A stretch of 64,000 nt of DNA from Amoebophrya sp. A120 (GCA_905178155.1 CAJINV010000005.1:5349038-5413037); one strand, 5' to 3'. Counted from the stretch's first letter, positions 2,248 through 64,000 are shown. Program-made: numbers and translations. Notes: a model not told the origin generated them from the sequence alone.

Positions 2248-5200
2248 ATGAAAATGACGTTGGGCCGCCGTAGCCTTCCACTCTTTTCGCCGGATAGAAG
2301 TTGCTCGAAAATGCGAGGTGACTGCTCCGCTGCAGCGATCGGGATAGCGAAGCTCTTACTTGTCGCGTTGAATATCGCGGTTTTCATTAGTGTCAGCGAT
2401 ACTACGAGCCCATCATTGACTGACAACGGGGACCAGGGACCCGTGCGAGTAGAACATCATGAAAATGCTGCAACTTCTGGACAAGCTCCCGCTGTGAGAT
2501 CTTCATTTGGAGCCGCCGCTCCCATTCTGTTCGCCTACGGGAAGAAGGTAAAAAAATTGCAGAAAATCAAGCTGGGTCGACGAAAGAAAATGAAACTCTC
2601 TCTGAAGAAAGCTTTACTGAACAACTACGTCCAGCCCTATAACCACATCCCCGGCGGAGGTTCCAATCCCGGCCCCCCTATGCCACCACCTGGCGGACTG
2701 CTGTCCGGAGGTCCTCTCGGTGCAGCTCCTCAACTCCCGGCGCCGCAGCAAATTTACATGAACGGCCCGCACCGAGGACAGCAGGGACAGCATGGTGGAT
2801 TTTCACACCCTACTTCTTCACAACAGTCGCTTTTACAGCAGCAGGCAAATTTCTTCCACCAAAGATCTTCTACTGCTTCTGCATCAAGAACCTCCTTCAC
2901 TGGGACGAGGAATTTACCCTCGTCTTCCAAGTTCCACCTTTTCCAGCAAGCCATTGACTCCGAGCGGGGGAAATGCCCCCACTGTCCGGAGATGCCGAGT
3001 TACGAGCTCGCGAAGGTGCAAAAGGTCGCATATGATTACGCAGAAGGGAATGCCCATCCCCCGGGACACGGACCAGGAAACTCCTTTTGGACTACTGTTG
3101 ATAACAGCCCGTATGAGAGTGCAAAACTCCCCCCCCCTTTTTTGTAATGCAAAACCCCAAGTCCAGTTGGTGCCTTGACCTTGTGGATGCACTGGCTGCA
3201 TGACAAATTCCAGAATGTCAAACAGTACTACATTCGGCGCGTGAATTTGTCATGGACAGACTCCACGTGTGTTGGTGGTTGTGATGCTGTTCATGCCATA
3301 CAAATGAGGGGGAGGGGGAGTGGTGCAAACGCATAGCCCGTTGGTGAAGCCCACGAAATACTCCGGCTGGAGTTACAGGGACTACGCAGACAAGGAACTG
3401 CGGTATGTGCAGCTGTTGACCGAGCGGAAATTGCAGGCGGACTTTGATAACTATCTTTTGTACGCGGAGGCCAGATCCACGCAGATTTTCGGAAGCTCGT
3501 TTTTCGGGGGCAGCAGGAGTAGTGCAACTACATCAGGAGTAGACCAATACGCAACGACCCCTAGTACCAGCAGCTCTAGCACCACACGACAGCAGCTGCA
3601 TCCAGACCACCAGTCCGCGGCTCAACATCGCCCACCGCCGAGGGAGCGCTTCACCTTTTCAGATTTGCACTACTATGAGAAACGACAAGGAAACGAGTTT
3701 TTGCGAAAAATAGCCGTGGAGCATGACAAACTCGACCCGACCTTTCAGCAGTACTTTTTCCACGGGACCTCGCTAAGCTTCAGCGACCATGAGCTGCGGT
3801 ATTTGAGTGATCAGGATTTGCACAGTCATGACGATTTCAAGCAGGTGCCGTTGCACGACCACGTGGGGCGGTCTTCTCCAATCGTGCAGCTTATGAGAGT
3901 GCACAACTCCCCCTTCCCCTCATTTGTATGGGATGAACAGCAATACAAACACCAGCACACACGGAGCCTGTGCATGACAAATTTATGCACCTCCTTCTAG
4001 CGTACTATTACTATTTGGCGGGCTTCCGGCATTTGTGATGCAAACGAAACAGTGCCACACGGCAGCGACTGGATTTGGGTTTTTGCATGACAAATGAGGG
4101 GGAGGGGGAGTTGTGCACTGTCATACAGCTTCGCGGTAAAGAAGGGTTGAAGTTCCACAAGAGGTCCACCGGCCGATTGCGCAACATGCTCCGCCTTGGT
4201 TTACAGCAGGAGGCGAACTGCGGGAGCAATGGGAACCTGTACGGATCGGGGATTTATTTAGCGAAGGACTTCCACAAAGCAGCACAGTACTCAAGATGGT
4301 GTTTGTATGTCTTCAGCAAATTTTTTTCTTTCCCGTACGCGTAGAAGTAGTACAAGTAGTGGCTTTGCTTTGGCATGACAAATTTTATTTGCCACAATCT
4401 TCCCCTCGTGACGAGTCTGAATGTTGTACTTCGTTCTAGCAGGACAAGAAGCTTCACGTAAGGTTCTTCTTGGGAGTCCTCACAGTTTTGTACACAAAAA
4501 TGCACGGGAAAAAGGAACGATTTGTGATATTCCATACCTTGGAGAAAGTGCGGATGACTAGCCAGCAAAGCGGCGTCACTCGCGATTATTCCCCTCAAGG
4601 TCGGTGGCAAGCGATTGTGGTGGTGAAACTCACCCTGCCGAGGAAGTACGAGAGAAGGGACAACGGGATTCCGAACAGAGTTGCGAAATTGAAACGCGGC
4701 ACCACCAAGCTGTTCCAACGAGATGTATTCACGAAGCCATCCAAGCCGGAAGAGAAACGAGCCTGGGAAGAAAACCGCGATAGATACTTCCAGCCACGAA
4801 ACCTGATCCGGCGGAAGAGATTTTTTCGGCCGCGCCTTATCAATGGTTTGCCTGCGGTAACTCCGACTCCAGGCACAGCAGCTGGCGCTGCTACAACACC
4901 GGCTGCGCCACAAAAAGATCCTTGGGAAACAGACGTGGTAGATCTGTTATGCATTGCAAAAGTATCGTACTCGTATAAACGCATTACAGATTTCCTCAGC
5001 ATGAGAAAATTTGTCATGCGGATTTACCTTCGGAAAAAGATTTGTAATGCATGACTGCAATTACTACGGGTGCGATACTTTTGATCAGGATATCTGTTTT
5101 ACCCAAGCAAAAATCAGGGCGGCGACATCGATGACGAGGTCGATTCAGAGGACGATAGTACTTCACCAGGTATACTTCGCCGCCTTTTAGGTACAACTAG

Positions 5201-8200
5201 AGCGCCACCAGTCGGACAGTATGACAGCAAGAAGCGGTATCGCAAGAAAAAAAGATTGTAGGTGTAACTTTCTTGGAGGATTAGCGTGACAAATATGTCT
5301 CGCATGACAGCAAAAACCTGTCATGCGCAGATAGAATGTGAAACACCCTTGAATGGACCCTACTATGCAGGGTTAACATGACAGGCGCAATCAATTTACA
5401 TGCTGCGCATCCCAAATTTACACAAACAACTTTGTTTTCTTTCATAAGCGGCAGTTCCGCGTCCGCCACGTGGGTGGGCACGAGTTGACGCCAAAGGAAG
5501 GGTATGCATTGCAAAAGTATCGTACTCGTATAAAAAATGCATTACAAATTATTTCCTCAGCATAAGAATGAAATTTGTAATGCGGATTTACCTTAAGAAA
5601 TGCGTGACTGCAATTCGAGTGTGTACGATACTTCTGCACAGGATAAAGGGAAGCAGCTACACACGGAGTTTGTCGTTCACGATGTGTCTTTACTGGAAAT
5701 TGCCTACATCCTCATCTACGACGTACCTGTCGGCCGAAACCCGGTGACCGACTTCCTAACCGAGTACCAACACGCGCACCACAAAATCGGCCTTGGCGGG
5801 GGTGTCACGGAGGTTATGGGCTACGACCCCATCACCTTACAGCCATCAGCGAATGTAAGGGAGTCCGCGGTAGTGGAGGGAAGGCGATCCTACTGGCGGA
5901 GTTGTGGGGTTTTGAAGGTATACATTGCAAATATGTCTGGGTCTGGAAACTTGTGATGCTAAAAGTGAACGATAGACGCACTGCAATACGCAGCTACGCA
6001 TGACAAATTTTTTGGCTGCCATGTCTTACGTATTCCGCATGGCAAGCTGCGTTTTTGCGTGAAAGGGAAGTGTGCTTTTTCGTGCGTATGCAACACAGGT
6101 TCTCGAGTCATTGTCATGCCACACAAGCATGACAAACTTGCATTCTTCCAGACCCAGACATTTTTGCACTTGATAGAAGGAAGTGTCTGTCGATGAACTG
6201 TGTCTGTGCTGCTCCCCCTGCGTGTGCATTTTGGTGCCGGACTGCGTGAAGGAAAAGATTGCGACAAATTTGAAACTGTGTGGGTCGTTATGCGCGGGAA
6301 ATCTATCGTGCAAGAGCTTCTGCAACGTGTTAAGGAACTGCGCTTGCTGTGCGGATCCGCGGCAAGGGACAGGATTGGCGAAACTTTTGCGAAGTAGCGC
6401 GGGGGGACTGATGAGCGCAGCCGCGTCGTCCTCTTCTAGAAGTAGAGAGTGCACCAGTTTGCCCGGCGGCCGGTTCAATTTTCACAACTTTTCCAACACG
6501 GAATATGACCCACTCGTGTTGGAGGAGGCCATCGAAGGAGGTGGAGAGCAGGGATCAGCACAAGCTGGACATCATGTTCAAAACGCCGTACCACAATCAT
6601 CAAACTGTTGCAGCTGCCTATACAACAGCGCTCCAAGCAGAAATACCACGACGAAAAATCAGTTTTGGTGCGGCTTCGGCGGCCACAACGGATGCGCCCT
6701 CTGTGTGCACGGTGGTTTCGAATGCTTGTGTGGTGAAATCGGGAGGATAAACGGCATCACCTGTATGATTGTGAAAAAAATATATGTTCCCCGCTTGTTC
6801 CCATAAGAATGCAGACTTATTCCCATAATACCTGTGATCATGCAGATTTGATGTCGCCACCAATCCAAAGCAAATCAGCTTTGTCTTGCAGTAGAAATGA
6901 ACTGGAGGTGTAATATGCTAGGCCTGCTCTTCAGCATGATTTTAGACGTTCTTATTGCTGTAGGCTTATGCTAAAGCGCATTTTTACAATATCAATGGCC
7001 TGCCAAATGTTTCCGCTCGCTCTTGCTTCCCAAATATGCAAGACAGAGGCAGTACAGAGGCTGCAGTAGTACCGTACACAAACCAGCAGCACTAAGTTTA
7101 TTGGGGACCACGAGGGGATATTTTTCCTAAACATCATAATAAGCCTAATGGGCGGCTCCGAAGGGAAGGAGCAAAATTGTGATATTTGCAGAATTGGCCA
7201 GGAGTACAAGATCAACGACCAGTGTTTACATCTACAAACGCAAAAGGTATCCTGTGCAAAAGTATCGTACTCGTATAAATGCAAGTCTCGCATCACAAAT
7301 TTTTTTCTTAAGGTAAATCCGCATGACAAATTTTATTTCTCATGCTGAGGAAATTTGTAATGCATTTATACGAATACGATACTTTTGCAGTTCATAAAAG
7401 GATTGCCTGCACAATGTCTGCACCTGTTGCGGACACCACACGACGTATGACAGTGCACAACTTCGTCCCCTCTCCCCCTCATTTGTATAGCATGAACGAC
7501 AATACAAGCATCAGCAAGAGTGCCGATTTTGCATGACAAATTTGCACTGGTGGGATGTAGTGCTGTTTGGAGTTGTGCCAGAACTTGTCATGCAAACAGT
7601 GCCAAGGGGAAGGCACAGCCCGTAACCGTATTTGGGATTTTGCATCACAAATGAGGGTGCGGGGGGAGTTGTGCACTTTCACACGACGCCTGCACCGGGG
7701 TGCGCGGAACAGTTTGTGTCGACGAACGTCATCGATAAATGTATCCTGAGGAAAATCGTGTTTTTGAATTTGTGATGCTATGAACTGGATAAGCAGATGG
7801 ATCTGTGATGCGGCTGCACTTGCTTCTATCCTGCACTGCACTACGGAGTGCAACTTGTCATGCGTGACTCCCAAAGCTTCTAGGTTTGTGTTGCAAAATC
7901 CCCATGATCTTGCCTCTGGCGTCGTGGGGACGTTTTTACTCAGGATAAAGTGCGAGCCGACGGTCTTGTCGAAACTTAGCTGTGGACATCTGGCCGGGAC
8001 AGTGAAGTACGGTTTGCCCCACATGTGTCTGGTGTACCTCGCGATGCAATATCTTCCAGAAAAAAACACCCAGCCCCATCCAATTATTTGTCATGCAAAA
8101 TATGCATAACATCCTGTGTTTGTCATGCGAAAAATGGATGGAAGTGGGTTTTTTTCTGTGGAGATGCAAATCTGTTGCCAAATCGCGACCAGTCTCGGGA

Positions 8201-9512: not shown

Positions 9513-12500
9513 ATGCCGGAATCCTCCCCAGCCCCTCTTCCGGATATCCAAGAAAAAAACATTGTAGGTGTAACTTTTTTGGAGGAACAGCATTACAAAT
9601 TTGTCTGGCATGACAGCAAAAACCTGTCATGCGCAGATAGTACGTGAAAACGCCGATGAATGGGCCCTACAATGCCGGCACAGCATGACAGGCTCAATCA
9701 ATTTGCATGTTGCGCATCACAAATTTACACTAACAGCCTTTTTTTCTTGGATACCGGACCTGAGCCGCACAGTGCGGTTCAACGAGGACGAGAATCTGAA
9801 CAACGAGAAGCACGATTTGTCGGGCCTGTTCTACATATGCATTGCAAATATGTCTGGGTCTGGAAGATTGTGAGATTTCTCATGCTAGTTTGGCATAACT
9901 CTGAACTTTGTATTGCGTGGCCATGAAGAACACACTCCTCTGGTCTGTCGTGCAAACACGATGTTTCTCATGCGGAATACGCAACACAGAGCCACGAGAA
10001 AATCTGTCATGTTGCTTGGCGGTGCATTACTTTACAGTGCGCTTCTTGTTCACTGACATGCATCACAAGTTTCCAGACCCACACATTTTTGCACTTGATA
10101 CTACACGACGAGACGGCAGTATTTGATCAACCAACTCCCCGTGACCGAGCCGAAATCGAAACAGTTGACGGAATATCCTGTGCAAAATTATCGTACTCGT
10201 AATATTGCAGTCTTGCATTACAAATCTTGTTCTTAAGGGGTAAATCAGAATTACAAATTTTATTTCTCATGCTGAGGAAATTTGTAATGCATTTATACGA
10301 GTACGATACTTTTGCAATGCATACGGAACTAGAGAAAATCGAACTAGAAGCGAAAGAAGAGCTCGACTTTGCTTTGAAATTTGCCAATGCCTGTAGGAGG
10401 TCAACAGCGGTCGTGAAGGCGGCGCAAGCCGGGTTCTTCGAGGAGGAATCAGAGGACGAATTGAGCTCCACTCCCGTGCCGACTGAATCGGAGAAGGTGG
10501 AGAAGAGTAGCAGCAGTCTGTCATCGCGTGCTGGTGGCTTTACAACATCCATCGAGCGAAGCAGCACCAATGCAGTCGCGAGTGTCGGGAACAAAGGTTT
10601 GCCGGGGTTCAGATCATCTTTTGGGAGAACTACGCAGACTGGTGCACCAGGTGCTGGACAAGAAACCCAGGGGGATGGTGGAGAGCCTCCTCCCCCGACG
10701 AACGAGGAACTCGCAGAGTTAAAGAAGCATGAAGCCATCAAGCAACAAAAAAAGAGGAGAAAGCAGAAGGAAAAATGGGAAAAGTTTTACAACTACTACA
10801 TCGAAACGGGGACGGATTACTTGACGATATCCAGGAAAGGACACCCATCCCCATCCAATTTGTCATGCAAAAGATGGAAAAACTCTTGTGTTTGTCATGC
10901 AAAAACTGGGTGGGGATCGGTGTTTTTTCGTCGATAGACCAACGAAGAGTACTACTGCTGCGAGGAATCGACTATCGAGGAGATCTGCCAGGTCATGTTT
11001 TTGCAAATCCAGTTTCTCGCCAGTAAAAGACAGGAATACAAGGGGTTCAAAGCGGCTGCGGTGCAAGATCGGGCAGATGATGAACAGGCAGCGAAATTGC
11101 AGCTGCGGGATCATGCGGAGGTTCTTGACGGAGTAGATGTTCACAGCTCGTTGAACACTTCGCGGTCTGTGTCCTCCTCTTCCACGACTCCCAAGGGCCC
11201 GTTTCAGGAGCTTCTTGACGCGGCCGGGAATAAAGGGAGAAAACTACCGTTGAAAGACCTGATCATCCAACCGCAGAACACGCCGAGGATCAACACGCGT
11301 AGTGGAAGTAGAAGCAGGGGAGTGGATGGAGGTCGAAGGAATAATGGCAATCGTTGTACTAGCAGCAACTGTAGCAGCAGTTCCTCCGCCACAGAGTCCT
11401 CTTCTTCCGCAAACACTATCTACTCCGGCTCAGCGGAGAGTGTGCGTTCCTTTCTCCGCGAATTGTCGGTCCGGACCCTGGGGTACGATTTATTGCGAGC
11501 GCAGCAGGAGCGAGCCGTCGGAACTACAGCGAGGGCTAGAACAGGAACACGTAGTACTGAAGATGCAGGTGACCACTTAGTTCAACATAGTGGAACCGAG
11601 TCCAACGAATCTACGGGACGAGATGCAGCAGCAGTTGTAGAAGATACGAACAACCAGACCGCACTGCGATTCGTGTTTGAGGTGTTGGATTATGCTTTGT
11701 CAACTACATATCAAATGTAAAAATGTCTGGGTCTGGAAGGTTCTGACACTTGTCATGCACGTTTTGCATGAGCCATGATGTCTGTGATGCATACCCTAGC
11801 AATACAGATTTTCTGAGGGCTTCTTGATGCCTATTCCGCATGACAAATGCCTTCGCAGCGTAGTAAGAATTGCATTCTGATGTTTGCTACTCATGCAATA
11901 CAGATTTTTTTGGAATCCAAATACAGCATTACAAGTTGCATTCTTCCAGACCCAGACATTTTTGCATTTCATACTACAGGAGGCGCGGTGTCTACTTCCG
12001 GTGAAGAAGAACAAGACTACACGACGAGAACTACGGGCCCTCTGCGGAGGTCCAAGAACAACTACACGGCTGGCGCACGAGGGGAATACAGCACGACAGA
12101 AAGAACTGCGAAGCAACTCGCCAGTCGAGTTGTTGCTGCGGCGCTTGAAGATGAAGATCTTCCGGGTGTTGATCAGAGTAGACACGACAAAGATGATATC
12201 AGTTCACTACCCTTCACCGAAGACTTGAAGATCTTGCCGCGGCGAGCGGACGCCGACCACAGGAGCAGGCGGAATAATTTCAAACCCGATACTAGTACAA
12301 CTTGGAAAACCGAACTGGTGGAGTTTCTCGATTTGGAAGAAGTAGAGGCGCAGGCATCTTCATCTGCGGCTTCATCATCATCTGCTGTTCATCATCTTGC
12401 GTCGTCGAGTAGCAACCGGGCTGGTGCAGCAGCTATTCCGCATGACAAGTTCAGCCAATCCTTCGTGCACGCTTTGCTGGACGAAGTGCTTGATCCAGAG

Positions 12501-45100: not shown

Positions 45101-47134
45101 CGCAACAATCGCAGACGATTTTTGGACCATGCCGAAAGCACAATGTGAATCCAATCTAGCCGACAAGTGTTTCGACAACAAGAAAGAGGGCCAAGACAGC
45201 GGCTCTCAATTTCTGGAACTAGACCACATGAATCTGGCTAGCTACCACATCGCTGGGAGGGCGCATCTGGTAAAAAAAGGAGGATATTTTGTTTTATTTC
45301 GCGTGATGTCCTGCTGGAGGAGTGCTTCGACTTCACATATTACGGCACAAAAATTGAAATTCTGCCTTGCATATTGTAAGTACATAAATTATGAAAATCC
45401 GATCAACCTACAAACACACGACGACCACCAGGTGTACCAAAGCACTCCTTCCCGTGCCACTGTCGTTCTTCGCGGAAAATCTTCTACGCAAAGCAAGACA
45501 CTCGTCGAAACACAACTCGCCCAAGCGTCGTCGTTGTTGCAGGACCGGACATTGTTGAAAGAGCATCGCGTACGGAAAGAACTTTCAGAAAAGAAGATGG
45601 CGACCCGCTATCCAGGGCGGATTCGGACGAACATACAGAATTCCAACCCAGAGACGCCCGCCAGTGTGGTGAGAGGGGAGACGAAACTGGCGAAGGAACA
45701 TGAAAATAAATACGAGAAGGCGATGACCACAGGGGGACCCCAAGCCGAAGCAATAAACCAGCAAGACGCTCCTGCCGGAACATCAAGTGGTGACATCAAG
45801 GAAAACGAGTTTCTCCGAGGACGTAGAGGTTTGGCGAAGGACACAGTTCTTAGGAGTGGCTTCGACATCAAACAAGATGCCCGCCATCACGACGACGACC
45901 TCCGTGTCCGTGCAGCGGAGTATGATGCAAAAGAATACTATGCGCAACCTGCCTCCACCTCATCCAGCGACACCCGCAGCACCTTTTTCCACGGAGTGAA
46001 AACAAGCCTCCCCGCTTACTGGCTGCGGTTCCTGACGAGGTCCGGAAATAAGAACAAGCATGAAAACAACGAAGAGCACCAGAACAACAAACAGAGACAG
46101 AGAGCGACCTCTTCTGCCGAGGACAAAGTAGATCTTCATAGAACTTCCGCCTCTATATCGTATCTCCACACCCTCGTCTACTCTCTCCCTACCGGCTGTG
46201 GGACGACGACCAATTCGGGCGAAACTACAACTCTCGAGCAACAAGCTGCCTGTTTCGAGAAGTTCACAAAACAAACCCTGACACCGACCCTGAAGAACCA
46301 TTTATTTCCATCTGACGGAAATAAAGTAGCGAAGGAAGCGCTGGAGAAGGTGTTTCTGCTGTTCGACGAAGGTGGATCGTCTTCAGCAGGCGCTGGTGAC
46401 CGTCGAGTAACTTTCCGCGTTTTGGAATTAGACGAGGAAATCATGTTTGGGGATGCAAGCAAAGAGTTATGAAATGCAAATATGTCTGGGTCTGGAAGCA
46501 TGGAACTTGTCATGCTGTTTTTGGACTCTAAAAAAATTTGTATTGCATGACCAGCAAGAGGGGCACAGTTTGTGCTACACGGACAGGTGCATCAGGAAGC
46601 CCTCTAAAAGTCTGCGATGCTAGGTCATGCATTACAGGCGTCATGGGTCGTGAGAAATATGCATGACTAATCTTGTGCTTTTCTTCCAGACCGAGACACT
46701 TTTGCAATTCATAAGAGTTGTTCATGAGCAACCTTTATGTACAACCGGAAGGCAGCAGCACTAGTGGTCCCGGCGATCCAGCTTTTTTTCCTCCATCCAA
46801 CACCGACGATTCTTCCTCCGAAACCGAGAACACGTTCCTGTTGCTCTTCTTCATCGTCGCAGCCGGGCTCGGCCTGTACGGGTTGCTACGGCGACGGATG
46901 CTGAACATCGGGAAGATGAACGTGCGAAGATCTACTTCAAGCGGGCAGTTGGCCGGGACTTCGAGCAGCGCAAAGTCTCCTTCCTGTGCTTCCAAAAGCA
47001 GTGGAGAATCGAGCACTGCGCCCATGGTCGTGCAGATGAAGAAGACGAGGAGCAGCAGCGGTGCTGCTGGTCGAGGTGGAGCTGGTTCGACAAGTAGCAC
47101 AGGCGCGTCCGTTATTGGGCGTCGCGAGGAGTAG
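42171..47134 (+). CDS. Cys-rich type-I membrane protein, paralog A; 9 exons
   Basis: Hydrophobic N-terminus; GNRNAASHLW, NFCPVSGSP, HHCCVPCVCD, YALVIRDPC, NGFVVIGL, SGMGAIF; C-terminal TM FLLLFFIVAAGLGLYGLL-RRR; eight elements removed in frame. Confidence 0.8.
42649..42865. mobile_element. TIR intron element F1
   Basis: DR cataa/cataa. Confidence 0.9.
42916..43027. mobile_element. TIR intron element F5
   Basis: DR cggaa/gggaa. Confidence 0.85.
43192..43346. mobile_element. TIR intron element F7
   Basis: Starts TAC; DR tagcg/tagcg. Confidence 0.88.
43400..43553. mobile_element. TIR intron element F2
   Basis: DR tacag/tacag. Confidence 0.9.
43604..43863. mobile_element. TIR intron element F3
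   Basis: DR cgttc/cgttc; joins HHCCV-PCVCD. Confidence 0.92.
43914..44224. mobile_element. TIR intron element F9
   Basis: DR ctggg/ctggg; closely similar to 58097. Confidence 0.9.
44296..44461. mobile_element. TIR intron element F2
   Basis: DR aggaa/aggaa. Confidence 0.9.
46468..46713. mobile_element. TIR intron element F3
   Basis: DR agagt/agagt; joins KE-LFM (uninterrupted in paralog B). Confidence 0.9.
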
Positions 47135-50900: not shown

Positions 50901-53900
50901 GCTTTTGCCTCTTGGCACTGTTTGCATGACAGGTTCTGGTACTAGCGGCCCAAACAGCATTTAGAATGATCCTGGACGAATTTGTGATGCGAAACCGGCA
51001 TAATTCTTACTAGCGCTTGTATTGCAGGCCATGCGGACGGGGCGGGTTCTTGTGCACTCTCATAACGAGTGCGCAAACCAACTGAAGGACGAGTGTTTCA
51101 ACGACCACTCGAGCTCTTTCCTTGAGAAAATGGACCTGGATATCCCAGAGAGAAAACAAAAAGCAGGCCGGGCATATTAGTTTTTAATGCAAAAATCGAT
51201 ACACGCAAAGTCTCTTCTCATGGGCGGCCCCATAGCATGCTGCTTAAGATATGCAATGCAGTATTCATTTTTGCATTACAAAGAAATTTGATCCTGCCTG
51301 CTTTTTTCTGTGTGATACTGGAGAAATTGAACTTGGCGGCCTATGAATTCGCGGGCAGGATGCATAAGGTACTTACAGCTTTATTTGGTGATGTAGAAAA
51401 TTGAAATTCTGTTTCTGCATTGCAAATCTATCCTAGTAGTTGCAGTACAAATTTTGTCAAGCGGAAAAGCGGAATTCAATGTGTAATGCTGGTTCAGATG
51501 GGAAACTACTTACTTGCATAGCTGGAAATTCTACGCCAGCGTTTGTTTTGCATTGATTAGTTGTGCATGATAAAAACTCCACGGACGATGATCAATTCTT
51601 CGCAGGAATAAATCAAAGCTTATTGTCCTCTCTTTACCTGCTCAGGCCTTTCAAAGCCACATCACCCACGCGGCGGCCGTCATTCGGGGAACGAGTTTTA
51701 TGTATGACAGTGCACAACTCCCGCTCTCCCTCATTTGTCATGCGAAATACCCAACTCCACGCTTTCCCTCCTGTCACTATTATGCATGACAAGTTGTGAT
51801 AGCCCAAATAGCACTCTACACTCCAGTGCAAATTTGTCATGCAAAACCGGCACTCTTGCTGATCCTTGGTTGTACTATTGCCGTTCATGCAATACAAATG
51901 GGGGGGGAGGGGGAGTTGTGCACTCTCATATTATGCAGAGCAAGGACAAGATCGCGGCAAAACTTGGGGTATGATCTGCAAAAGTATGGTACTGCTCGTA
52001 CTAGCTGTATTGCAATACAAATTAGCTCAGCATGACACATGGAATTTGTCGTGCTGATTTACTTAGCTTGAGAAAGAATAAGAAACAGAAACTTGTCTTG
52101 TATGACAACTGCGATTAGTACGAGTACGCTGCTTTTGCACAGGATACGGGGAGGCCAGTTCTCTGCTGGATGGCAACCGCCAACTGCTCCGCGAGCACCG
52201 TTATCAAGTGCAAATACGTAGTATGGGTCTGGAACATCATGACAACTTGTCATGCCAAATCTGAGTCATGCAAAATTCTGTGTTGCATGCTTACAAAAAG
52301 CCGTCCATTTATGACCAAGTATGACGAATTTGCAATCCATAACCGCGTCTCGAAGCCGAACGCGAACCATTTTCCGGGAAAAATCCTGCCGGCGGTGAAA
52401 AAGACCTCCAAAACTTCATCTTCTTCCACGCAGAACAGCGACGGCAGTAGCAACCTCGCAGACGACGAAAAATCCGAATTTTTGCGCGCGCGGCAGCTGG
52501 GCATCAAGTCGAGTAGTTCGAGTCGAGCATCTTCTACCCGCCATTCCGCGTGGATGCTGTTTCTGCAGAAAATTGCGTTCGGGACGAACAAGTTAACAAC
52601 CACAGCACGACGATCGAGATCGTTGACGAAGTCAACTACATCCGGAGATAATGACAGCAGCAGCAAAGACAATGACAATGTTGACAAACCCATTTACCAC
52701 CACACTCTCGTGTACTCCATCCCCACGAACTGCGACAAATCTTTACCCCCTTCGGCGACGCGGGAGGAGAAGGAACTTTGCTTCAACAAGTTTGTCGAGG
52801 AAACTTTGAAGCCGACTTTGGAACAGTATCCACAATAAGTTTACCGTACACGTACAAATGCGGTCTCTGCATGGCAAAACTTGACTTCGATCCTAGTTCA
52901 GCATGACAAGTCTCACACTCCAAATTGGGGAAATTTGTGATGAATCTTGTACATGTTGTGCGGGAAATTTGTATTGCATAAACAGCAACTACTGTTCACG
53001 ACGGATGAAAGTGAAAAGAAACAAAATGATTTGGAAAAGATCTTTCCACCGGAATTAGCGGGTCGTGACAACACGAAAAACAAAAAGACGACGAACAACC
53101 TGTCGCTGAGAGTGTTGAAGCTGGGTGAAACCATCATGTTTACTGCGGAAAGGGAGGAGAAGGAATTGTTCATGACCGAAGTCGGGAAAAACGACGAAGA
53201 GGGATCAACTTCCAGCAACACGGCAGATGACCTGGAAAACACGGTTTTGATGCTCTTCTTCGTCCTCGCGGTGGGATTCAGTCTGTACTTCCTGCTGAAG
53301 AGAAGGTTCGCGAACTTGATCAGCGGTGGAGAGGGTGCAAGCAAAAACTACATCTTCGGAGCTTCTTCTTCTTCCTCTTCTTCTGCCGCGGGGTACGGGG
53401 TTGATGACAAAACATCCTCTGCCGGGGCGGGGAACAAGTCGCCATCTCTTTCGTCCAAAAGCACGAGCAGTGGCGAGAGTACGGCGCCCATTGCGAAATC
53501 GATGGTGACAGGACGATATGAACTGCAAAATCATCGTACTAGTAGCTGTAATTGCAATACAAATTAGCTCAGCATGACAAATTGAATTTGTCATGCTGTT
53601 TAACCTTGGGATGGAGATTTGTAATGCAGGACTGCGATTACTACGAGTACGATACTTTTGCACAGGATAGACGAAATGGAGGGACGAAGCGGGAAGTTTT
53701 AGCAGGGAAGAAACATCTCGGCGGCCCGGGGGATCAAGAAGCGGTATGGATTGCAAAAATGTCTGGGTCTGGAAGAATGCAGGAGTCTGTCATGCAGATT
53801 TTGCATGACCCATGAGGTCTGTGATGCATGCCCTAGCATCAGAGATTGTGCGAGGGCTTTCTGATGCTCATACCGCATGAGAAATGCCCTCTCCGCGTAG

Positions 53901-54093
53901 CACAAATTACACCTCTTTTGCTCTTCATGCAATACAGTTTTTATGTAGATTCCAAAAGTAGCATCACAAGTTGTATCCTTCCAGACCCAGACACTTTTAC
54001 ATTTGATAAGCGGCAGTGATTGGAAACACGAATGTGGTGCAACGCAGTGAGACCCAGCGGATCGGTGGGGCGGAAAGTAAAAATCGCCTTTAA
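47960..54093 (+). CDS. Cys-rich type-I membrane protein, paralog B
   Basis: Same motif order as paralog A (SNRNAASHLWV, NFCPVSGSP, HHCCVPCVCD, YALVIRDPC, SGMGAIFIQAACLGFAP, HTLVYS, TM VLMLFFVLAVGFSLYFLL-KRR); introns near 48320-48530 and 51370-51600 unresolved. Confidence 0.78.
48050..48158. mobile_element. TIR intron element F5
   Basis: DR ttgtc/ttgtc. Confidence 0.9.
48606..48764. mobile_element. TIR intron element F7
   Basis: DR gacac/gacac. Confidence 0.9.
48813..48958. mobile_element. TIR intron element F2
   Basis: DR gggtc/gggtc. Confidence 0.9.
49086..49299 (+). other. Canonical GT-AG intron
   Basis: gtact...pyrimidine tract...tgcag; joins MQLQ-WTAP, aligning with IRWNS of paralog A. 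Confidence 0.7.
49413..49705. mobile_element. TIR intron element F3 (diverged)
   Basis: DR cgtgc/cgtgc; ends ATG; joins HHCCV-PCVCD. Confidence 0.88.
49950..50109. mobile_element. TIR intron element F6 (inverted relative to 19818)
   Basis: DR aattt/aattg; ends AGA. Confidence 0.85.
50187..50396. mobile_element. TIR intron element F4-like
   Basis: DR ctggc/ctggc. Confidence 0.9.
50501..50743 (+). other. Canonical GT-AG intron
   Basis: Joins IFIQ-AACLG, contiguous in paralog A. Confidence 0.85.
50613..50728. repeat. Intronic minisatellite
   Basis: Reiterated caccgaatactccttactcatgcaaatgaacatgca units. Confidence 0.8.
50843..51064. mobile_element. TIR intron element F1
   Basis: DR acgaa/acgag. 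Confidence 0.85.
51141..51317. mobile_element. TIR intron element F8
   Basis: DR ctgga/ctgga. Confidence 0.9.
51703..51930. mobile_element. TIR intron element F1
   Basis: DR ttatg/ttatg. Confidence 0.9.
51970..52146. mobile_element. TIR intron element F2
   Basis: DR tgggg/cgggg. Confidence 0.85.
52202..52341. mobile_element. Internally deleted F3 element
   Basis: Left F3 end intact, right ccagacccagac block missing; DR accgt/accgc. Confidence 0.8.
52827..52980. mobile_element. TIR intron element F6
   Basis: DR aacag/aacag. Confidence 0.9.
53517..53669. mobile_element. TIR intron element F2
   Basis: DR gacga/gacga. Confidence 0.9.
53745..54008. mobile_element. TIR intron element F3
   Basis: DR agcgg/agcgg. 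Confidence 0.9.
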
Positions 54094-54222
54094 GAAGGTA
54101 GGAAAAGGAGGGGCGTTGTAAGACGCCGAACCGACGAGCCACGCGTCCATTGAACCGGGCCACACTTCAAGTAGTATAAAAATCTTGTGATGGTAAAAGC
54201 AGAAGGAGTAAGTGGCACAAGC

Positions 54223-54598
54223 TGTAGATGAATTCCGTTGAAGATGCAAACTCGTGGCGAAGGAGGTCGAGCAGTATCAATGTAGAGAAGTTGTAGATGT
54301 ATCAAATGTAAAAATGTCTGGGTCTGGAAGAATGCAACTTGTAATGCGTATTTCAGAACACAGAAAAGTCTCTCATGTATACGTAGCAAAAGCTCCCACT
54401 TTTTGTCAGAAAAATAGGGGACTTGTCATGCGGATTCGGCATTGCGGAAGGTTCTCGAAACCTGTGATGATAGAGCTTCCATGCCAGACCTTCTGTGTCA
54501 TGCAAAAACAGCATGACCCTTTCAGACCCAGACATTTTTGCATTTCATAAGATGAATTCCGTTGAAGATGCAAACTCGTGGCGAAGGAGGTCGAGCAG
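54223..54598. repeat. About 52-bp direct duplication, second copy interrupted by an F3 element
   Basis: tgtagatgaattccgttgaagatgcaaactcgtggcgaaggaggtcgagcag at 54223-54274 and again at 54292-54299 plus 54555-54598. Confidence 0.9.
54300..54549. mobile_element. F3 element downstream of the stop codon (probable 3' UTR)
   Basis: DR agatg/agatg. Confidence 0.9.
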
Positions 54599-54639
54599 GG
54601 CCTTCTGAGTATCTTTTCATCAATTTCTGTTTCAGTTTT

Positions 54640-55941: not shown

Positions 55942-58900
55942 ATGTCGACCTCGAACACCCCAATTCTCCGGGGGAAAAACTCCCGCCTTCCCAAGCAGCT
56001 CCCCAGCCTCGAATATCAAATGCAAATATGTCTCGGTCTGGTAGGTTGCAACTTGTGATGCTGTCTCTGGATTCGAAAAAAATCTATATTGCATGACCAG
56101 CAAGAAGAGACCAGTTTGTCCTACGCGGACAGGGCATTTCTCATGCAGAATCAGCATCAGGATCAGCATCAGGAAGCCCACCTCTACAACTCTGTCATGC
56201 TAGGCCATGCATTTTTACAGGCATCAGGGGTCGTGCAACATATCCATGACAAACCTAGCAACTTTCCAGACCCAGACATATTTGCATTTGATATCGAATC
56301 CACCCCGACGGCGGCAGCACTGTTGGACAATCTGCCCACTCCTGCGAGGGCGGGTACTACGGGGGGAGTTCGTCGGGCGAATAACAACAACAATGTTCTT
56401 GGGGCAGCAGGAGGAGCTGTGCCGGCTTTTTTTCCGCGGCACCAACTGCAAGGAGAGCCATCCGCTGTGCAGATGTTGAACGCTGCAGCGCCAACTACAA
56501 CGGAGATTAACAACGCGAGTGGAGGTGCTGTTGTACTTGGTGCAGGAGCTGCAGATACTCTATTACAAGAGAACTCCGCCGGCTTCTCCGGCGACGCAGC
56601 TTTTTCGCAGACGCAGACAAGCACAGCATCTTCAACTGCTGGGCAAGGAAGTAGTGGAAACACAGTTGTTGACGAAGGAGATCAGGAAGAAGGTCGCAAC
56701 AGCCGCAATCCAGAAAATCTGCTCGACATCCACTCAACAAATATTAACCAGACTGCCAGCAGCAATCCGCTCAACTCATCCAAACACCTCCGGCCGCAGT
56801 CCTGTTTTTCTCCCGGCGGGGGTATGAAATGCAAACGCATCGTACTAGTATAAATTGCATTTACAAATTGACTTAGCACTACAAATGAAATTTGTAATGC
56901 TGATTTACCTTGAGAAAGAGATTTGTAATGCATAAATGCAATTGCCACGAGTACGAGACTTTTGCACAGGATAGGGGGCGTGGTAGGGGAATTCGGACTA
57001 GAAATCGGCGACACGACAACGATATGCAATGCAAAAGCATCGTACTAATCTAAATTGCATTACAAATTGACTAAGCATTACAAATTGAATTTGTAATGCG
57101 GATTTGCCTTAACAAAAAGATGCAGAACCGCAATTAGTACGATTACGATACTTCTGCACTGCATAAACGACAGCAGGAGCAGCTTTCGGCGCCGGAGGTG
57201 GCGGAGGTTTCATGTTCGGCTTACACGGAGCAGGAGGTGCAGGACATCAGTTTCTACACCACAACTCGCAGGACGACGCTCCTGATGAAGTCTTGGCGCA
57301 ACAGCGGAAGGAAAAGCTACTCCGCACGGGCACTCTGCTATCGCAAGAAAATAAAACTGTTTCACTGTAAACTTGTAATGCAGAAAATGCTTCGCAAAAG
57401 TGTTTGTCTTTGTGTTGCAGCTACACATGCAAGACAAGAAGTGACTTTTGGCCGTGTTTTCCCGTAGCATCCTCACATGGCAAGTTTTCTTTGTCAGGTG
57501 TAAGTAACGATCTTGTGATGCAAAATTTGCAAAATTCTTACAGTGAAGCACTTTTTTCGTACGATATCTGCCGGAAGAGGATGAGGAAGCGCTGCCGATC
57601 GGGGTGAAAAAAGCGATGAAAAAGAACGCGACGGCGAGGGGTTCGCCGAAGAAGAAGAAACCGAGCAGCTGCGGCGTGGATGGCAAAATAAACGACCACA
57701 GTCGTCGTGTCAGTGAAGATTATAACACGACGATCAACTCCTACTCCATGATCTCGTCGTCCCCCTCCAACAAAGGTCGTGGACCTGCGCTGTCAACGAC
57801 CGAAGCTGGAAGTACAAGAATTAGAGTATCGGCGAGGAACAGGTCCTCGGCTGCACTTCTAGCGGCACGACTGTGCAAAATTATCGTACTCGTATAAATG
57901 CCAGACTAGCTGCATGAGCATGACAAATCTGGTTTCTTAGGTAATTTAGCATGACAAATTCAATTATTCATGCTGAGCTAATTTGTGATGCAATTTATAG
58001 CTAGTACGATGTTGCTTTTGCAGTGCATAAGCGGCACTGTCCGACGAAAGTAGTGAAGACGAGGAGGCGGCGGCGTTTCGGCGGAAGGCAACTCAGTATG
58101 GATGTGTCAGGATCGAAATCGACAAAGTTGAAATAACTTGCAATGCATAAAATGCATGACGCGGAATATGTGTGCTGCAAAGCAGGCAAGTGACACCGAT
58201 TGTAAGCCTGTTTGGATTTAGAGCTCGAGCTGCTAAAGCAGCATGAGAGAGTCGGTCTTCTTTGCTTAAACAGCATTACAAACTGGATTTAGATAGCGCC
58301 AAGATTTGTCATGCGCCACTTGGAAACTGGGTTGCAACTGGCATCCATTTTATGCATGGCAAACCATTGCAACTTTGTCGACTTCAATCCTGGCACACCC
58401 ATACTCAGGCGGAGTTGGATATACAGCAACTCCTGCTTGGAAACAAGAAAGGTGACGACGGTAGTAGCGCCAATAGAATTAGAAGCGGGCGCGGGCTGCA
58501 AAATGATACTGGCATGGACCGCGGCTCTTCGGAAGATGAAGATGAACAAACTGGAGCGGATAAAAAATTATCAACATCATCAAACCCGGCACGCCACAAC
58601 AACAAGCTGGCGACGATGAAGGCGAATTCTGTCGTCTCCAACGGTAGTACTAAGTTAAGAAGCAATTTCTACGGCTCCCCCCACAGTGCAAGTACAACTG
58701 CGGGCGAAATCAACATCCGCTGGAAGGAGCCAGGACGTGGGTCGAACAAGACAGCCGCCGTCAACGGGAGCAGTAGTAGTAGCAGCTACGAAAAAATCAT
58801 GAGTGCGAGCGGGACGTCGAAGATGAAATTGAAAACGAGCTTGAACACAACTTCTACGGAAATAGACCAGCTTACCACCGCTCGTCCCCGACCCAGAACG

Positions 58901-61900
58901 ATAAAGGTTCTTCCGTCTACTTCCGCCACACCCACCTCAGGAGACGCTTTGGGAGTAGTTCATGGAAGCAGTAGCAGTGGTACTGGTAACCTACGTAGCC
59001 GTTCCTCGTCCAGCTCTCAGCCCTCTACTGCGGCGCAACTACATCAAGCACAGCAAATATCAACCAAAGACCAGCTCGAACAGGAGATGCTCGAAAACGA
59101 CCTGTCGCCGGAGAAGAGCAAAAAGGTGGACTCGTGGCTACGGGGCATTATCCTGTGCAAAAGTATCGTACTCGTAGTAATTGCAGTCATGCATTACAAA
59201 TTTTTTTTCTTGAGGTAAATCCGCATGACAAATTTCATTTGTTGTGCTGAGCGAATTTGTAATGCAATTACTACTAGCGCGATACTTTTGCAATGCATAG
59301 GTATGGCGATCGAGCAAAAACGATCCGAACGGATGAAGTTGCCGAGCTTTCAAGAGTCGGCCGCCCTGTCGAGGAAAGACTCACTGGGAAAGAACGACCT
59401 GAAGTTGAAGCAACTCTGCCCGGAGGAGTTCGTGCGGAAGTTGAATTCCCGCTACGAATCCAGTACGCATTGCAAATATGTCTGGGTCTGGAAGAGTGCA
59501 AGACTTGTTGTCATGCAGAAACTCCATAACACACGAGGTCTGGCATACAGGGCCCAGCATGACAGATTCTGTGAGATATAATCCATCATGTATGACGCCT
59601 CTCCTGCATGACAAACTGCCTCTGGACTTGGGCAAAACGTCGGGATGACTTTTGGCAATCATGCAACACAGATTTTTGTGCAGGATGCAGACTTAGCATG
59701 ACAAGTTTCCACTCTACTTCCAAGCCCAGACATATTTGCAATGCATATCCAGCATGAAAAACGTAAACAACCGGGACTTGGCCGAAATGGTAGTGAACAA
59801 TTTAAATCTGTCCAACACCTTCACCCCAAACGAAAAAACGGTTATGAGAGCCTCAGAATGGAAATTCTCAAAGTGGAAGTAATCTGTGATGCATGAAAGA
59901 CGACACCAAAAAGACTGTATTGCAGAGAACGCAATCGAGGCCGACTATTGTGCTTCTACGGCTTCAGAATTGGGCTGCTGATCAGCACGAGAGAGGGGCA
60001 CCCCTTTGCCCTAAGTAGCATGACAGAGTAAGGTCGTTTTTTGCATTACAAATTTATTTCCACTTGTTTGAGGACTTTCATTCTGAGGCTTTCATAACGG
60101 TGAAGCGGCGCGAAAAGGCCCTGTTTTTGAAACACAGTGAGAAGGAAAAACTGCTGGAAGAAAGCAAGGACTACTGGGTAAACACCGCGATGTCGCCGAT
60201 GAGCAATTTTGGATACCACGATCTGGACCTTGTTCCTCACGCCTCGTCGTCTTCACCGGGTGCCGGCGCTCCTGCTGCAGTAGTCGGGAACACGGAAACC
60301 GTCAACGCTAAAAATAGTGTACCAGCATCAAGCCCAGGAGGAGAGGAAAGATCGCAGCAGGAAATGTTGGTGCGTCGGGGAGAAGGTACGAGAAGTTCTA
60401 GTCCTAGTGCTGGAGGTGGTGCAATACATCAAGAAATTGACTCTGGTGCAGTTGCAGCCCCGGGAGGATCTTCGACGGGGAATGACACGAATACGATGAA
60501 CAACATGACGATCAAAACATCGAGCAATGCGCTTCGTACAGCAAACGCAAAGAGAAATGTGCCGCGAATGAAACCGAGCGGAAAATTTGGTACGTTTGGG
60601 CCGAAGACCGCAAGTAATACGGTGAATGGTACTACTAGAACTGAAGCGGTTATAATTTTGAGTCCGAAAACCAAGACCACGAACAGGAACCTGGATAACG
60701 ATTTTCTTGAATCTTCCAGTCGTCGCTCGGGTGTAATGACGTCCCCTGCGAGGTTGAATGCGGTTGCAAGTCAAACAAGAACAAAATCCGGTACAAATGT
60801 AGTGAACAAGCAGCTGGGAAAAGAAAATAAAAATAGCTGCTCGCCAACTTCGTGTGGGGCCGAATCACTTTCATTGAAGAGTCCTTCACGCAAGAACTTT
60901 TTCTCACCCTCACGCACAACAGGAAGTTTCTTCCTCGGTGCCCTTTCTCCGACTTCTTGTTCGCCTGGCTTCAATACCACGCTCTCCCCCAGCAGCATGA
61001 CGTCCCCGACGAGCGCCGGGCTGACTAGGCCGAGTTGGCTGGGACGGAAACGGATTCTCGACCCGGAAAAAGATCCGGTGTACATCCAGCATCAGTGCAG
61101 CGCAAAATGGCTCAAGCTGATTACGGTGATTCACTGCTTCCAGCACGAGTTCAAACAGCGGCTGCTCTTTTTACGGAAAATCCAACTGGCCGTGCCCCCG
61201 AACCGGAATGGCGACGCGGACGAGAAACTATTCTCGAAGTACTGGAAAAACTACGACATCGAGGACGAGACCACGATAGTACTGTCTTCAACAAACGACC
61301 ACGATGAAGAAGAAGACGAGTCGTGTGAAGTACAACGTGGGGATGAAGAGCAGTCCACTACCTCACACACCGTACCAGCAAAACAAGATGACGAGCAAAT
61401 GATAAATAAGAACACCGGGGGCAGCGCAAAAACAAAAAGTAGGGATGAGCAAGAACATGACTACAAGCACAACTACGTCCAGCACGAAGCAGGTCGTGGT
61501 GATTATTTCGTACACGATGAGGAACCACTAGATGAGACCTTTTTCGTGGCGAAGAGGTACCTGCTGCTTTTGCCGATCCGTATCAAGTGCAAAAATGTCT
61601 GGGTCTGGAAGATTCTGAGACTTGTTGCCATGCATGTTTTGCATGACCCAGGATGTCTGTAATGCACGACCTAGCAACACAGATTTTTAGCGGGCTCCCT
61701 GATGCCTCCTCCGCATGACAAACGCCCTCGCCGCGTAGCATAAACTAGACTCCTCTTGCTGGTCATGCAGTACAGATCTTTTTAGAGTCCAAGCTTAGCA
61801 TCACAAGTTCCACCCTTCCAGACGAAGACACTTTTGCACTTGATAGTCCGCGTTTTGAAACAACAGTATGCGGAGTATCTAGAGCTGAAGAAGAGAAGAA

Positions 61901-64000
61901 CAAATTTTTGCGACGTCTACTTCAAGCAGCCCAACACGAGCGAGAACAAAGAACAAAAAGAAAGCCGCGAAGATGAACGGGATATTATGATGAACAACGC
62001 CCACCCGACGGATCTCGTGCCGACTAGGACCACCCTGGAAGTAGATGGTCATCACGCCCAGGATCTTCATACAACTGGACGAGATGACGCAGTTCCTTCT
62101 CGTCCTCGTCTCGTCCACGATGAAAATGCAAACGACCCACCACAGGACGAGCTCGTCCGTGCAAGAGCAACTGGCTCTGCCAACAGCGCAAGAAACAACT
62201 CCAACTCGTCCACTGGCGGAACCCGAACCGGGGGCAACGACGTTGTGTCTTGTTGTTCTACCGCTCCGGTTGCGCTGCAGCTGAAACAACAAATTCATGA
62301 CGGGGATGAAGAAAATGTTGACGAAAGAAAAAATTCTACGGGCTTTACTGGAGGTGTAGTTGACACCAGAAGTAATAGAAGTCTTCCTGATCATCATGAC
62401 CACCCCGTTCATCCTACTTCCGGCGCGAGAACATCGACCAAGACGACGAGCGCCACGACCACGCCCTCTTCTATCCTGACCAAGCTGCGGCTTTTGAACG
62501 CTTTCCTGGTGCGGCGCTTTCTCGTGTATCCACAGTAAATATCCCGGACACGTACATCAAATGTGGTTTCTGCATGACAAAACTTGCCTCCAATCCTAGT
62601 GCAGCATGACAAGCTGGGCTCCGCAAGGTAGCGAAATTTGTCATGCATTTTGTACATGTTGTACAGGAAATTTACATCGCATATCGTGGTCCAGCTGCGG
62701 CGAAAGAGACGGATTCAGGTGGTGTACAACTGTCTGAACCACTGGAATATCGAGTGCAAATATGTCTGGGTCTGGAAGAGTGCCAGGTTTGTCATGCAGG
62801 TTTTCCATGGCCACCCATGAGGGGTGGTATGTAGGACATAGCACGACAGATTCTGCGAGAGTTCAATCATGCCTGGTCTGCATGAGAAACTACTGCCTCT
62901 CGATTAGGTCAAAAGCGCACAGCTTTTGGCAATCATGCAACACAGATTTACTTTACATGATTTTGATTCAGATTTAGCATGACAAGTTGCACCCTTTGTC
63001 TGCTTCCAGACCCAGACACATTTGCATTTGATATGGAAAATTCTCGGCAGGCTGATGCTTGCGTTCAAGCAGTATTACGCCAAGATCCGCAGAGTTCAGT
63101 CCTGTATCCTGTGCAAGAGCATCGTATTCGTATAAATGCATTATAAATTTTCTCAGCATGAGAAACAATAACAAATGAAACTTGTAATGCGGATTGACTT
63201 TAAGAAAAAGATTTAAGTATAATGCATCATGACTGCAATTAGTACGAGTACGTGTGCGATACTTTTGCGCTGCATATCCTGGTGGAAGGAAGACGCCGGG
63301 AAAAAACTAGCGGCGAAAGTCCAACGGCTGACGAATCGGTGGACCAAAATCGAGTACCAGATCGTGGAAAAAAAGTTGCTGGCTTTAGAAGACCACAGTG
63401 CGCCGGGAGCTAGTACAACTACAGTTGCGGGGGCGGATCATATCGCAAGAAAAAACTTGTAATGCAGAAACTGTATCTCAGAAGTGTTTGTCTTGCTACA
63501 CATGCAAGCCAGGTGATGTTTAGCTGTGTTTTCCCTTAGGGACCTCGCATGGCAAGTCTTCCCTGTCATGTAGAGCAAACTTGTAATGCAAAACTTGCAA
63601 AATTCCTACAGTGAAACACCTTTTTCGTACGATAGATCGAGGCCGAGTGAACTACAAACAGGGCGGCGCGACGAGGAGGAGAGGGAACAACATAAAGAAC
63701 TTGAACGGTAGTTCATCTGTGGCGCAAGCAAATCAAAAAAAGAACCCGATCCACCCGGGCAGCTGCAACTTCTTCTACAAGGACAACAACCACACCTCCG
63801 GAACTAGTAGTACAGTGAAGCTTCGCAATTTTAACACGTCCCTAGCTGGGGGCTCTACTGGTGGTCGTGCTGGTGGTATGGAGAGAAAAAAGTTTGTCAC
63901 AGTCACTACCTTGCAGGTTTTGCATTACAAATTTTTTCAGCATCACAGCTTTTCCCTGTATTGCAGAAACACTAGGGAAATGCCTTATGAAGTTTGGCTG
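55942..64000 (+). CDS. Large hypothetical protein, low-complexity rich, with an IQ-like segment (KIRRVQSWWK); continues beyond the window
   Basis: ATG at 55942; removing 14 elements links ORFs 56089, 57604, 58262, 60064, 61834 and 63229 into one open frame. Confidence 0.75.
56014..56293. mobile_element. TIR intron element F3
   Basis: DR tcgaa/tcgaa. Confidence 0.9.
56823..56973. mobile_element. TIR intron element F2
   Basis: DR ggggg/ggggg. Confidence 0.9.
57023..57165. mobile_element. TIR intron element F2
   Basis: DR aacga/aacga. Confidence 0.9.
57339..57566. mobile_element. TIR intron element F4-like
   Basis: DR tctgc/tctgc; similar to 63441. Confidence 0.9.
57866..58029. mobile_element. 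TIR intron element F2 with altered left end (CAC)
   Basis: DR agcgg/agcgg, extendable to agcggcac. Confidence 0.8.
58097..58403. mobile_element. TIR intron element F9
   Basis: DR ctcag/ctcag. Confidence 0.9.
59149..59299. mobile_element. TIR intron element F2
   Basis: DR ggcat/ggtat. Confidence 0.88.
59464..59747. mobile_element. TIR intron element F3
   Basis: Starts TAC; DR tccag/tccag. Confidence 0.88.
59843..60096. mobile_element. TIR intron element F9-related
   Basis: tatgagagcctcagaatg / cattctgaggctttcata; DR acggt/acggt. Confidence 0.9.
61581..61845. mobile_element. TIR intron element F3
   Basis: DR atccg/gtccg. Confidence 0.88.
62527..62683. mobile_element. TIR intron element F6
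   Basis: DR tcgtg/tcgtg. Confidence 0.9.
62748..63033. mobile_element. TIR intron element F3
   Basis: DR tggaa/tggaa. Confidence 0.9.
63105..63276. mobile_element. TIR intron element F2
   Basis: DR tcctg/tcctg. Confidence 0.9.
63441..63634. mobile_element. TIR intron element F4-like
   Basis: DR gatca/gatcg. Confidence 0.85.
63877..64000. mobile_element. Left part of a TIR element cut by the window edge
   Basis: tatggagagaaaaaag start; gcattacaaa and gcatcacag motifs. Confidence 0.6.

Follow-up and report, generated by a model that had tools for sequence, protein, structure and literature searches.

The closest described counterparts of the elements considered here are the introner elements of Amoebophrya sp. 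strain A120, of which approximately 30,000, with inverted repeats starting with TAT, direct repeats of 3-5 nt and RNA-seq support, have been reported (Farhat et al. 2021, PMC7789003). In the passages of that paper covered here, which include Table S6, the organism is described as having a nearly full spliceosome in which U1 was undetected, and no transposase was found. In this study, we analyse a stretch of 64,000 nucleotides from A120 (GCA_905178155.1, CAJINV010000005.1:5349038-5413037; hereafter the window, with positions counted from its first base), in which 82 inserts ending in TAT...ATA were found, nearly all within genes. Because Farhat et al. describe introners in this strain, the element class is already published, as an earlier examination of the DNA (the sequence-only reading) had noted for Amoebophrya; its further remark that the excision machinery is not established still holds for the literature passages covered, and a 2024 review, in the part considered, still treats the removal mechanism as a suggestion. 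The window inserts resemble the published introners in their TAT inverted repeats, the later run of A, the many families and the mixture with GT-AG introns. The same paper leaves the intron border unknown or variable while noting four bases of the repeat on the upstream side of the 5′ end, and reports, in the passages covered, no internal motif across families, whereas in the window a single register fits and the elements share one motif.

Other systems, likewise known to us from parts of the sources cited, share some of these features. The nonconventional introns of Euglena and diplonemids (PMC12501133, PMC12621601, PMC11282704) also have non-GT-AG ends, paired termini, junction repeats and a proposed origin from MITEs (miniature transposable elements with inverted repeats), and their register was likewise found from cases in which the junction cannot slide. 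However, Euglena introns carry CAG at +3 and CTG at -8 and yield excised circles, whereas the window elements have a fixed T at +2 and a start that matches the host GTAY; the euglenid end motifs are not borne out by the end composition of the window elements or of the independent set described below. In Fritillaria borealis, introns with terminal inverted repeats and target-site duplications are removed by an adapted spliceosome (PMC11282704, PMC13326754, bioRxiv 2025.08.15.670264), the reading favoured below for A120, but there the termini are defined (AG-AC, AG-AT) and U2AF is duplicated, while the 3′ dinucleotide of the window elements is free. Micromonas and Aureococcus have introners (Huff et al. 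2016, via PMC11282704 and PMC7789003) that are MITE-like as well and take one splice site from the element and one from the target duplication; unlike the window elements, they end in canonical GT/GC-AG and depend on a target that matches. A literature search whose coverage excluded subscription journals and figures returned no account of the A120 register, the +2 constraint or the shared motif, and figures S19-S25 of Farhat et al. 2021 and the datasets of PMC12130899 may show the register or the motif.

Elements of the window and the position of the cut

A strict scan (perfect 5-bp direct repeat, ends at most one base off TAT...ATA, inverted-arm score of at least 9) recovered 58 elements, 53 of them with exact TAT and ATA ends; in three shuffled versions the weak candidates numbered 7, 13 and 11, and not one of them reached the same score cut-off. 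A relaxed scan gave 65 rows, from which another 17 inserts, with imperfect repeats, were picked by eye; three more were added by eye, and four decayed inserts were recognised through public proteins aligned to the window. The resulting 82 inserts measure 109-329 bp and have inverted arms and a 5-bp repeat on each flank. The 78 non-decayed elements fall into 14 or 17 families, depending on the threshold, in line with the roughly 80 transposon-like inserts of at least nine families counted by the sequence-only reading. An independent set was assembled by searching the contigs of another public assembly for the element-end pattern, which gave 163 loci (L001-L163; 546 kb) with no overlap with the window genes. 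A strand-symmetric detector, which recovers 67 of the 78 window elements with no false call and finds none in shuffles of 50 loci, identified 341 unique elements there; a codon model assigned an orientation to 273, with neighbours in agreement 128 to 5, and 68 were set aside. These elements share the window families, with identities of 65-94%. Two half elements (L002:4500-5030 and L010:4994-5500) lack a partner end in their vicinity, and the copy at L065:571-1051, of 480 bp, contains an internal insertion.

In both sets, per-position counts show inverted repeats that begin with TAT and continue with variable bases and then a run of A. The direct repeat is 5 bp throughout and is perfect in 59 of the 78 window elements and 215 of the 273 independent ones. 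Five empty paralogous sites, one in the window (54219) and four in independent loci, each carry a single copy of the repeat, which identifies it as a target-site duplication. With terminal inverted repeats, a target-site duplication, no coding capacity and many copies, the inserts are non-autonomous, MITE-like DNA transposon-like elements, that is, introners. Their lengths show no triplet bias (26/29/23 by removed length modulo 3), and a retained insert would stay in frame without a stop in only 2 of 82 cases. Rfam gave no match within the window. The elements do not show the U2-type GT/GC donor, as the +1 base is free (G in 32 of 82) and only positions +2 to +4 match the host GTAY.

Only when each insert is taken out together with five bases are the frames restored; this opens stretches without a stop that run for 2234 aa (11 elements), 1146 aa (8) and 1285 aa (9), and restores GKT in the Walker A motif of a DMC1-like recombinase, ALAGTY in the activation loop of a kinase and FGWP in B9D1, so the frame restoration read from the sequence for these same three sites was confirmed. 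Furthermore, 27 junctions in public proteins agree with exact removal of insert plus five bases, and one protein reads through. These junctions also bear on the notion that ordinary GT-AG splicing acts at cryptic pairs near the element ends at the price of small protein changes. A frame-keeping GT...AG pair does lie within 15-20 bases of the ends in 45 of the 82 elements, but the other 37 have none, the 27 junctions neither gain nor lose a residue, and the frame-keeping GT-AG pair at 39043 would add a residue that neither annotation nor homologs show. Sliding the junction through the direct repeat allows GT-AG for 2 of 78 elements (5919 and 7248) and GC-AG for 3 of 78, the numbers estimated at the outset. 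We regard cryptic splicing as barely credible; the junctions of the public proteins do not fall at nearby GT-AG pairs, an outcome that the sequence-only reading had named as grounds for giving up its view.

Perfect repeats leave the cut free to slide, whereas mismatched repeats fix the junction and thus allow it to be placed. The register k, defined as the number of upstream-repeat bases kept, was compared with four public proteins, which are reproduced by k of 3-4 (DMC1-like, first 302 residues), 4 only (kinase, P0009), 4-5 (B9D1) and 2-5 (P0018). Among informative sites, eight require k of at least 3 (three of these at least 4), two require k of at most 4, and none requires k of at most 2. 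All four proteins are compatible with a single register, in which bases 1-4 of the upstream repeat and base 5 of the downstream one are kept, and the intron likely reads N-TAT...ATA-NNNN. Homologs support this register at four sites independently of the A120 annotation: in the element at 20013-20208, their invariant MRKD requires 3 or 4 upstream-repeat bases plus base 5 of the downstream repeat (three of the four homologs used are nearly identical to one another), and in the B9D1-like gene PLMCV, QGITQ and GWPR require at least 4, 3 and 4 upstream-repeat bases, respectively. In Table S4 of PMC7789003, as covered here, all nine predominant A120 splice-site pairs have T at +2 with +1 free, and all nine A25 pairs start with TT; the choice of aligner may contribute to this pattern. 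An alternative intron that begins with the final base of the first repeat and closes with the initial base of the second, for a net gain of one codon, was rejected: it gives GKKT in Walker A and is absent from the 27 junctions.

Elements whose repeats differ at 3-4 positions are still removed at the same register, so removal does not depend on the repeat. Of 105 repeat mismatches, 53 are synonymous, a share that exceeds the neutral expectation of 28-30% and comes close to the 39-47% predicted under a fixed register. These decayed repeats also count against the idea that the inserts stay in the mRNA, with gaps in RNA-seq arising from reverse-transcriptase jumps and ribosomes bypassing the inserts between matched codons. 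Phage T4 gene 60 is a precedent for such bypassing, a hairpin with a repeat is a known setting for template-switch artefacts, a 5-base repeat always contains one in-frame codon (as arithmetic dictates), and one public protein does read into an element. Nevertheless, the TAT that follows the repeat yields no stall codon in any frame, and one protein of 375 aa would need 13 bypasses, so that we judge this explanation very improbable.

Several side observations concern the junctions. In the older elements 25838-26088 (CAG acceptor) and 20013-20208, 28210-28376 and 39043-39326 (G at +1 in all three), the intron-side repeat bases are shifted toward canonical ends; mismatches in the independent set show no such drift. 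Insertion phases 0:1:2, counted at the fixed register, are distributed 142:51:80 in the independent set (p about 5e-11), a bias that holds for either strand and for different families and is not explained by target letters; the window phases are 30:21:30. An AG|G target preference, weak in the window, is absent from the 273 independent elements.

Routes of removal

The elements are inserted in both orientations (38 versus 32 in the window; the two biggest families split as 34 of 72 and 25 of 50), yet the cut register and the conservation of the ends follow the direction of transcription. A cut in DNA set by element orientation would split between k and its mirror register, whereas eight of eight informative junctions keep at least 3 upstream-repeat bases as counted by transcription and none shows the mirror, which suggests removal at the RNA level. 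The sequence-only reading had listed a modified spliceosome, a hairpin-guided endonuclease with ligase, and DNA excision side by side; these are not on a par, since this result argues against DNA excision. Programmed excision before gene expression, as in the internal eliminated sequences of ciliates, would account for the transposon anatomy, for a two-strand internal motif spaced near three helical turns that suggests a DNA-binding protein, and for the single repeat that remains. Apart from the register, however, old copies without motif or repeat are still removed, and the empty sites seen are all paralogous copies; we therefore hold DNA excision to be improbable.

We think it somewhat probable that the MITE-like introners are removed from pre-mRNA by a modified spliceosome at one fixed register. 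This is the best reading because the N-TAT start resembles GTAY, C is the sole variant at +2, a spliceosome has been reported and Fritillaria offers a precedent. Such a spliceosome would pay no heed to the intron's first base and its last two; whichever way the element lies, the terminal TAT would supply positions +2 to +4 of the host donor consensus (GTAY), the paired arms would hold the two ends close to each other and may stand in for U1, and the 3′ cut would be measured four bases past the arm, possibly, as a guess, from a branch adenosine at -7. Among the ordinary donors listed in the window, 9 of 9 read GTA and 7 of 9 GTAY, with 5 of the 9 introns backed by public proteins.

The spliceosome requires U at +2, and the element ends can be compared with this requirement. 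Across 350 elements, the T at +2 has one variant (C, forming a GC donor) against eight at the mirror position (p=0.039), and out of sample there are none against seven (p=0.016). Positions +2 and +3 vary less than the private rate of change in the element interior predicts (p=0.008 and 0.03). The A at -7 varies in 3 of 350 elements against 11 at the mirror (p=0.057), which is a hint only.

A number of observations weigh against this account. The spliceosome normally needs a 3′ AG and a polypyrimidine tract, and the elements show a preference for neither: AG ends 8 of 82 window introns and 27 of 273 independent ones, close to the background (7%). If the arms were paired with the 5′ end, they would need to be unwound before U6 could read it, and one element folded alone was no more stable than shuffles (z=-1.07). 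The out-of-sample count at +2 was 0 versus 9 before four doubtful calls were dropped, and the tests of end conservation were several and uncorrected. The asymmetries at A+3 (0 versus 5 in the window; 2 versus 3 out of sample) and A-7 (0 versus 4; 3 versus 7) replicated poorly, which makes the branch-point idea weak. An excess of G at repeat bases 4 and 5 in the window (39% versus 28%) was not replicated in the 273 independent elements. The register was obtained indirectly, from transcript-guided public annotations and homologs, and Farhat et al. 2021 (PMC7789003) describe the splice sites, in the passages covered, as variable relative to the hairpin. Finally, the public A120 DMC1-like protein reads into the element at 23020-23301 and ends in nonsense, either a retained intron or an error of the gene model; removing this element restores the conserved C-terminus and a gap-free alignment to the A25 ortholog.

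A spliceosome-independent RNA system, proposed in the covered passages for euglenid and diplonemid introns (PMC12501133, PMC12621601, PMC11282704), would instead use an endonuclease that reads the paired arms and TAT/ATA and makes a staggered cut one base before and four after the stem, followed by a ligase that joins the exons. Pairing is predicted between the ends of the elements, with a mean probability of 0.64 and values above 0.4 in 77 of 82, and the lack of any 3′ sequence preference in both sets agrees with such an enzyme, as do the short-5′/long-3′ offset of the Euglena motifs (+3 and -8) and the circles those introns give (same sources). At arm positions 17-30, the transcribed strand shows G-U over A-C at 99 to 62 (orientation-balanced p=0.001; out of sample p=0.0025). 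However, there is no such excess at positions 4-16 or across the whole arm, and a mild C>T coding-strand bias in element interiors may account for part of it; overall, folding does not differ between the sense and antisense strands. Among the three terminal pairs in the window, A-C mismatches outnumber G-U by 7 to 1, which makes base identity rather than pairing seem important there, and the invariant base is the T at +2 with C as its sole variant, a spliceosomal pattern. We consider this system unlikely, though by no means negligible.

A bolder form of the spliceosomal reading may also be put forward, tentatively and as somewhat short of probable. The A120 spliceosome would have dropped both terminal dinucleotides, reading N-UAY at the 5′ end and counting the 3′ cut four bases past the terminal ATA, while one transposase system acting through one subterminal motif would insert elements at any sequence and in either orientation with the protein unchanged. 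Such an element would be a target-independent, scarless intron-making transposon.

A motif shared by the families

A 10-base internal motif, GCAT(G/T/C)ACAAA, occurs in every family, at about four copies per element and on either strand. With each element's own family left out of training, it gave 220 matches in 77 of 78 window elements, against 2.2 in shuffles; the 273 independent elements contain 1128 matches (542 forward, 586 reverse), which mostly start 30-50 bp from an end. The outermost 30 bp on either side of an element hold almost no copies, save for those that overlap the terminal repeat itself. Spacings of 31-32 bp are frequent, and 31 bp is the commonest same-strand spacing in the independent set. 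The motif is strongly conserved among the lineages of a family (shared changes are four times rarer); private changes strike it at 73% of the interior rate, which amounts to slight protection only. It is missing from three of the four decayed elements that are still removed, and this loss from old copies points to a transposase site rather than a splicing signal. The motif is thus probably a subterminal DNA-binding site of the mobilising protein or transposase, an arrangement reported for other MITEs. Motif density is 16.3 hits/kb in elements, 3.1 in the listed GT-AG introns (two of which have approximate 3′ ends) and 0.2-0.3 elsewhere, and these values led us to reject the motif as a mark of all introns; its rate in GT-AG introns is about 10 times that of exons.

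One putative integrase-type transposase would mobilise all families through this shared motif, which would not be needed for removal. No transposase family was found among the 84 of 137 long unspliced frames of the independent loci that were scanned against Pfam, no long autonomous copy appeared among 40 unpaired ends of the 250-300 bp family (of the 11 listed with more than 600 bases of sequence beyond them, three were inspected), and a comparison of two element-end patterns with viral contigs gave no match. As regards relatives, IS3EU/GingerRoot elements have TA..TA termini like those of the window, but their target duplications are usually 6 bp (PMC10045372, in part), at odds with the 5 bp seen here, and the Copia/Gypsy-like introner family 38 of A120, which has terminal inverted repeats, is described in the portion covered as having an integrase-like coding region (PMC12130899). 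Both links are leads only. The shared motif could serve as bait for the missing transposase.

Host genes in the window and implications

All host genes lie on the + strand, and exons of the DMC1-like recombinase, the kinase and parts of the long protein are 100% identical to Amoebophrya sp. A120 records. As the sequence-only reading maintained, precise removal, for the most part without GT-AG, occurs alongside ordinary GT-AG introns within the same genes, namely the DMC1-like, kinase and B9D1-like ones.

The DMC1-like gene (19480-23674), whose A25 ortholog has DMC1 as its best solved match, holds 13 elements: 19596-19754, 19818-19967, 20013-20208 (two mismatches in the direct repeat), 20717-21018 (within the GKT of Walker A; its intron ends are AT-AG at the fixed register), 21076-21246, 21287-21441, 21490-21645, 21905-22111, 22168-22430, 22495-22671, 22736-22977, the read-through element at 23020 and 23434-23595. 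Its two GT-AG introns are at 20288-20502 and 21686-21850; the former also fits the element template (G-TAT ... ATA-TCAG), has one motif copy and is possibly an old introner turned canonical. The protein kinase gene (25440-30445) contains four elements, at 25838-26088, 27384-27543 (in the activation loop) and, decayed, 27931-28155 and 28210-28376, together with GT-AG introns at 26330-26594 and 27672-27869. In the B9D1-like gene (38860-41038), whose spliced frame equals the A120 record P0010, two decayed elements (39043-39326, 39394-39683) are followed by three others (39753-39962, 40090-40304, 40368-40576) and one GT-AG intron (40662-40852).

One gene, at 3112-6175, carries seven elements (3112-3335, 3892-4125, 4306-4536, 4948-5092, 5238-5446, 5503-5645 and 5919-6175, the last slidable to GT-AG); the spliced frame of 2248-6800 includes a YGSGIYLA stretch that may be PARP-like. 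A small gene (7248-8164) has four, at 7248-7396 (also slidable to GT-AG), 7446-7683, 7742-7947 and 8050-8164. Eleven elements (9545-9753, 9836-10100, 10174-10323, 10828-10936, 11709-11973, 14991-15100, 15167-15495, 15632-15927, 17017-17228, 17320-17541 and 18097-18262) interrupt the 2234-codon frame at 9545-18262, in which seven junctions agree with the public proteins P0017 and P0018. The stretch 31559-35235 is a gene region of 3.7 kb with several apparent introns and no recognisable intact element. A short unnamed gene has one element, at 37608-37752, and a weak intergenic element-like stretch at 41826-42049, which begins TCT rather than TAT and has no motif, was excluded from the count.

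Two tandem paralogs (42170-47134 and 47960-54092) encode a cysteine-rich protein with a hydrophobic C-terminal stretch. The first, with the 1146-codon frame, has eight elements between 42649 and 46713 (42649-42865, 42916-43027, 43192-43346, 43400-43553, 43604-43863, 43914-44224, 44296-44461, 46468-46713), and the second has 14 between 48050 and 54008 (48050-48158, 48606-48764, 48813-48958, 49413-49705, 49950-50109, 50187-50396, 50843-51064, 51141-51317, 51703-51930, 51970-52146, 52202-52341, 52827-52980, 53517-53669, 53745-54008). Because the two carry elements at different positions, insertion postdates the duplication. Next to them, a non-coding duplication of about 50 bp (54219-54598) comprises an empty copy with one 5-bp target and a second copy in which the element 54300-54549 lies between two target copies; after the empty copy at 54219 comes a short stretch resembling an element start. 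The long gene at 56014-63634 contains 14 elements: 56014-56293, 56823-56973, 57023-57165, 57339-57566, 57866-58029 (which starts CAC and gives a GC donor), 58097-58403, 59149-59299, 59464-59747, 59843-60096, 61581-61845, 62527-62683, 62748-63033, 63105-63276 and 63441-63634. The left end of an 83rd element, on the + strand and cut by the window end (63877-64000), is 91-94% like copies in two independent-set loci.

About two thirds of the introns of this organism break the GT-AG rule. A fixed register, N-TAT ... ATA-NNNN, turns seemingly patternless splice sites into one rule by which gene models would be corrected, bases for mutation can be chosen and the expected place of a branch is given. 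Together with the +2 constraint and the shared motif, it makes the mechanism directly testable. If the spliceosome acts, the 3′ AG and the G at +1 are dispensable at genome scale; if it is not responsible, a second nuclear splicing system exists.

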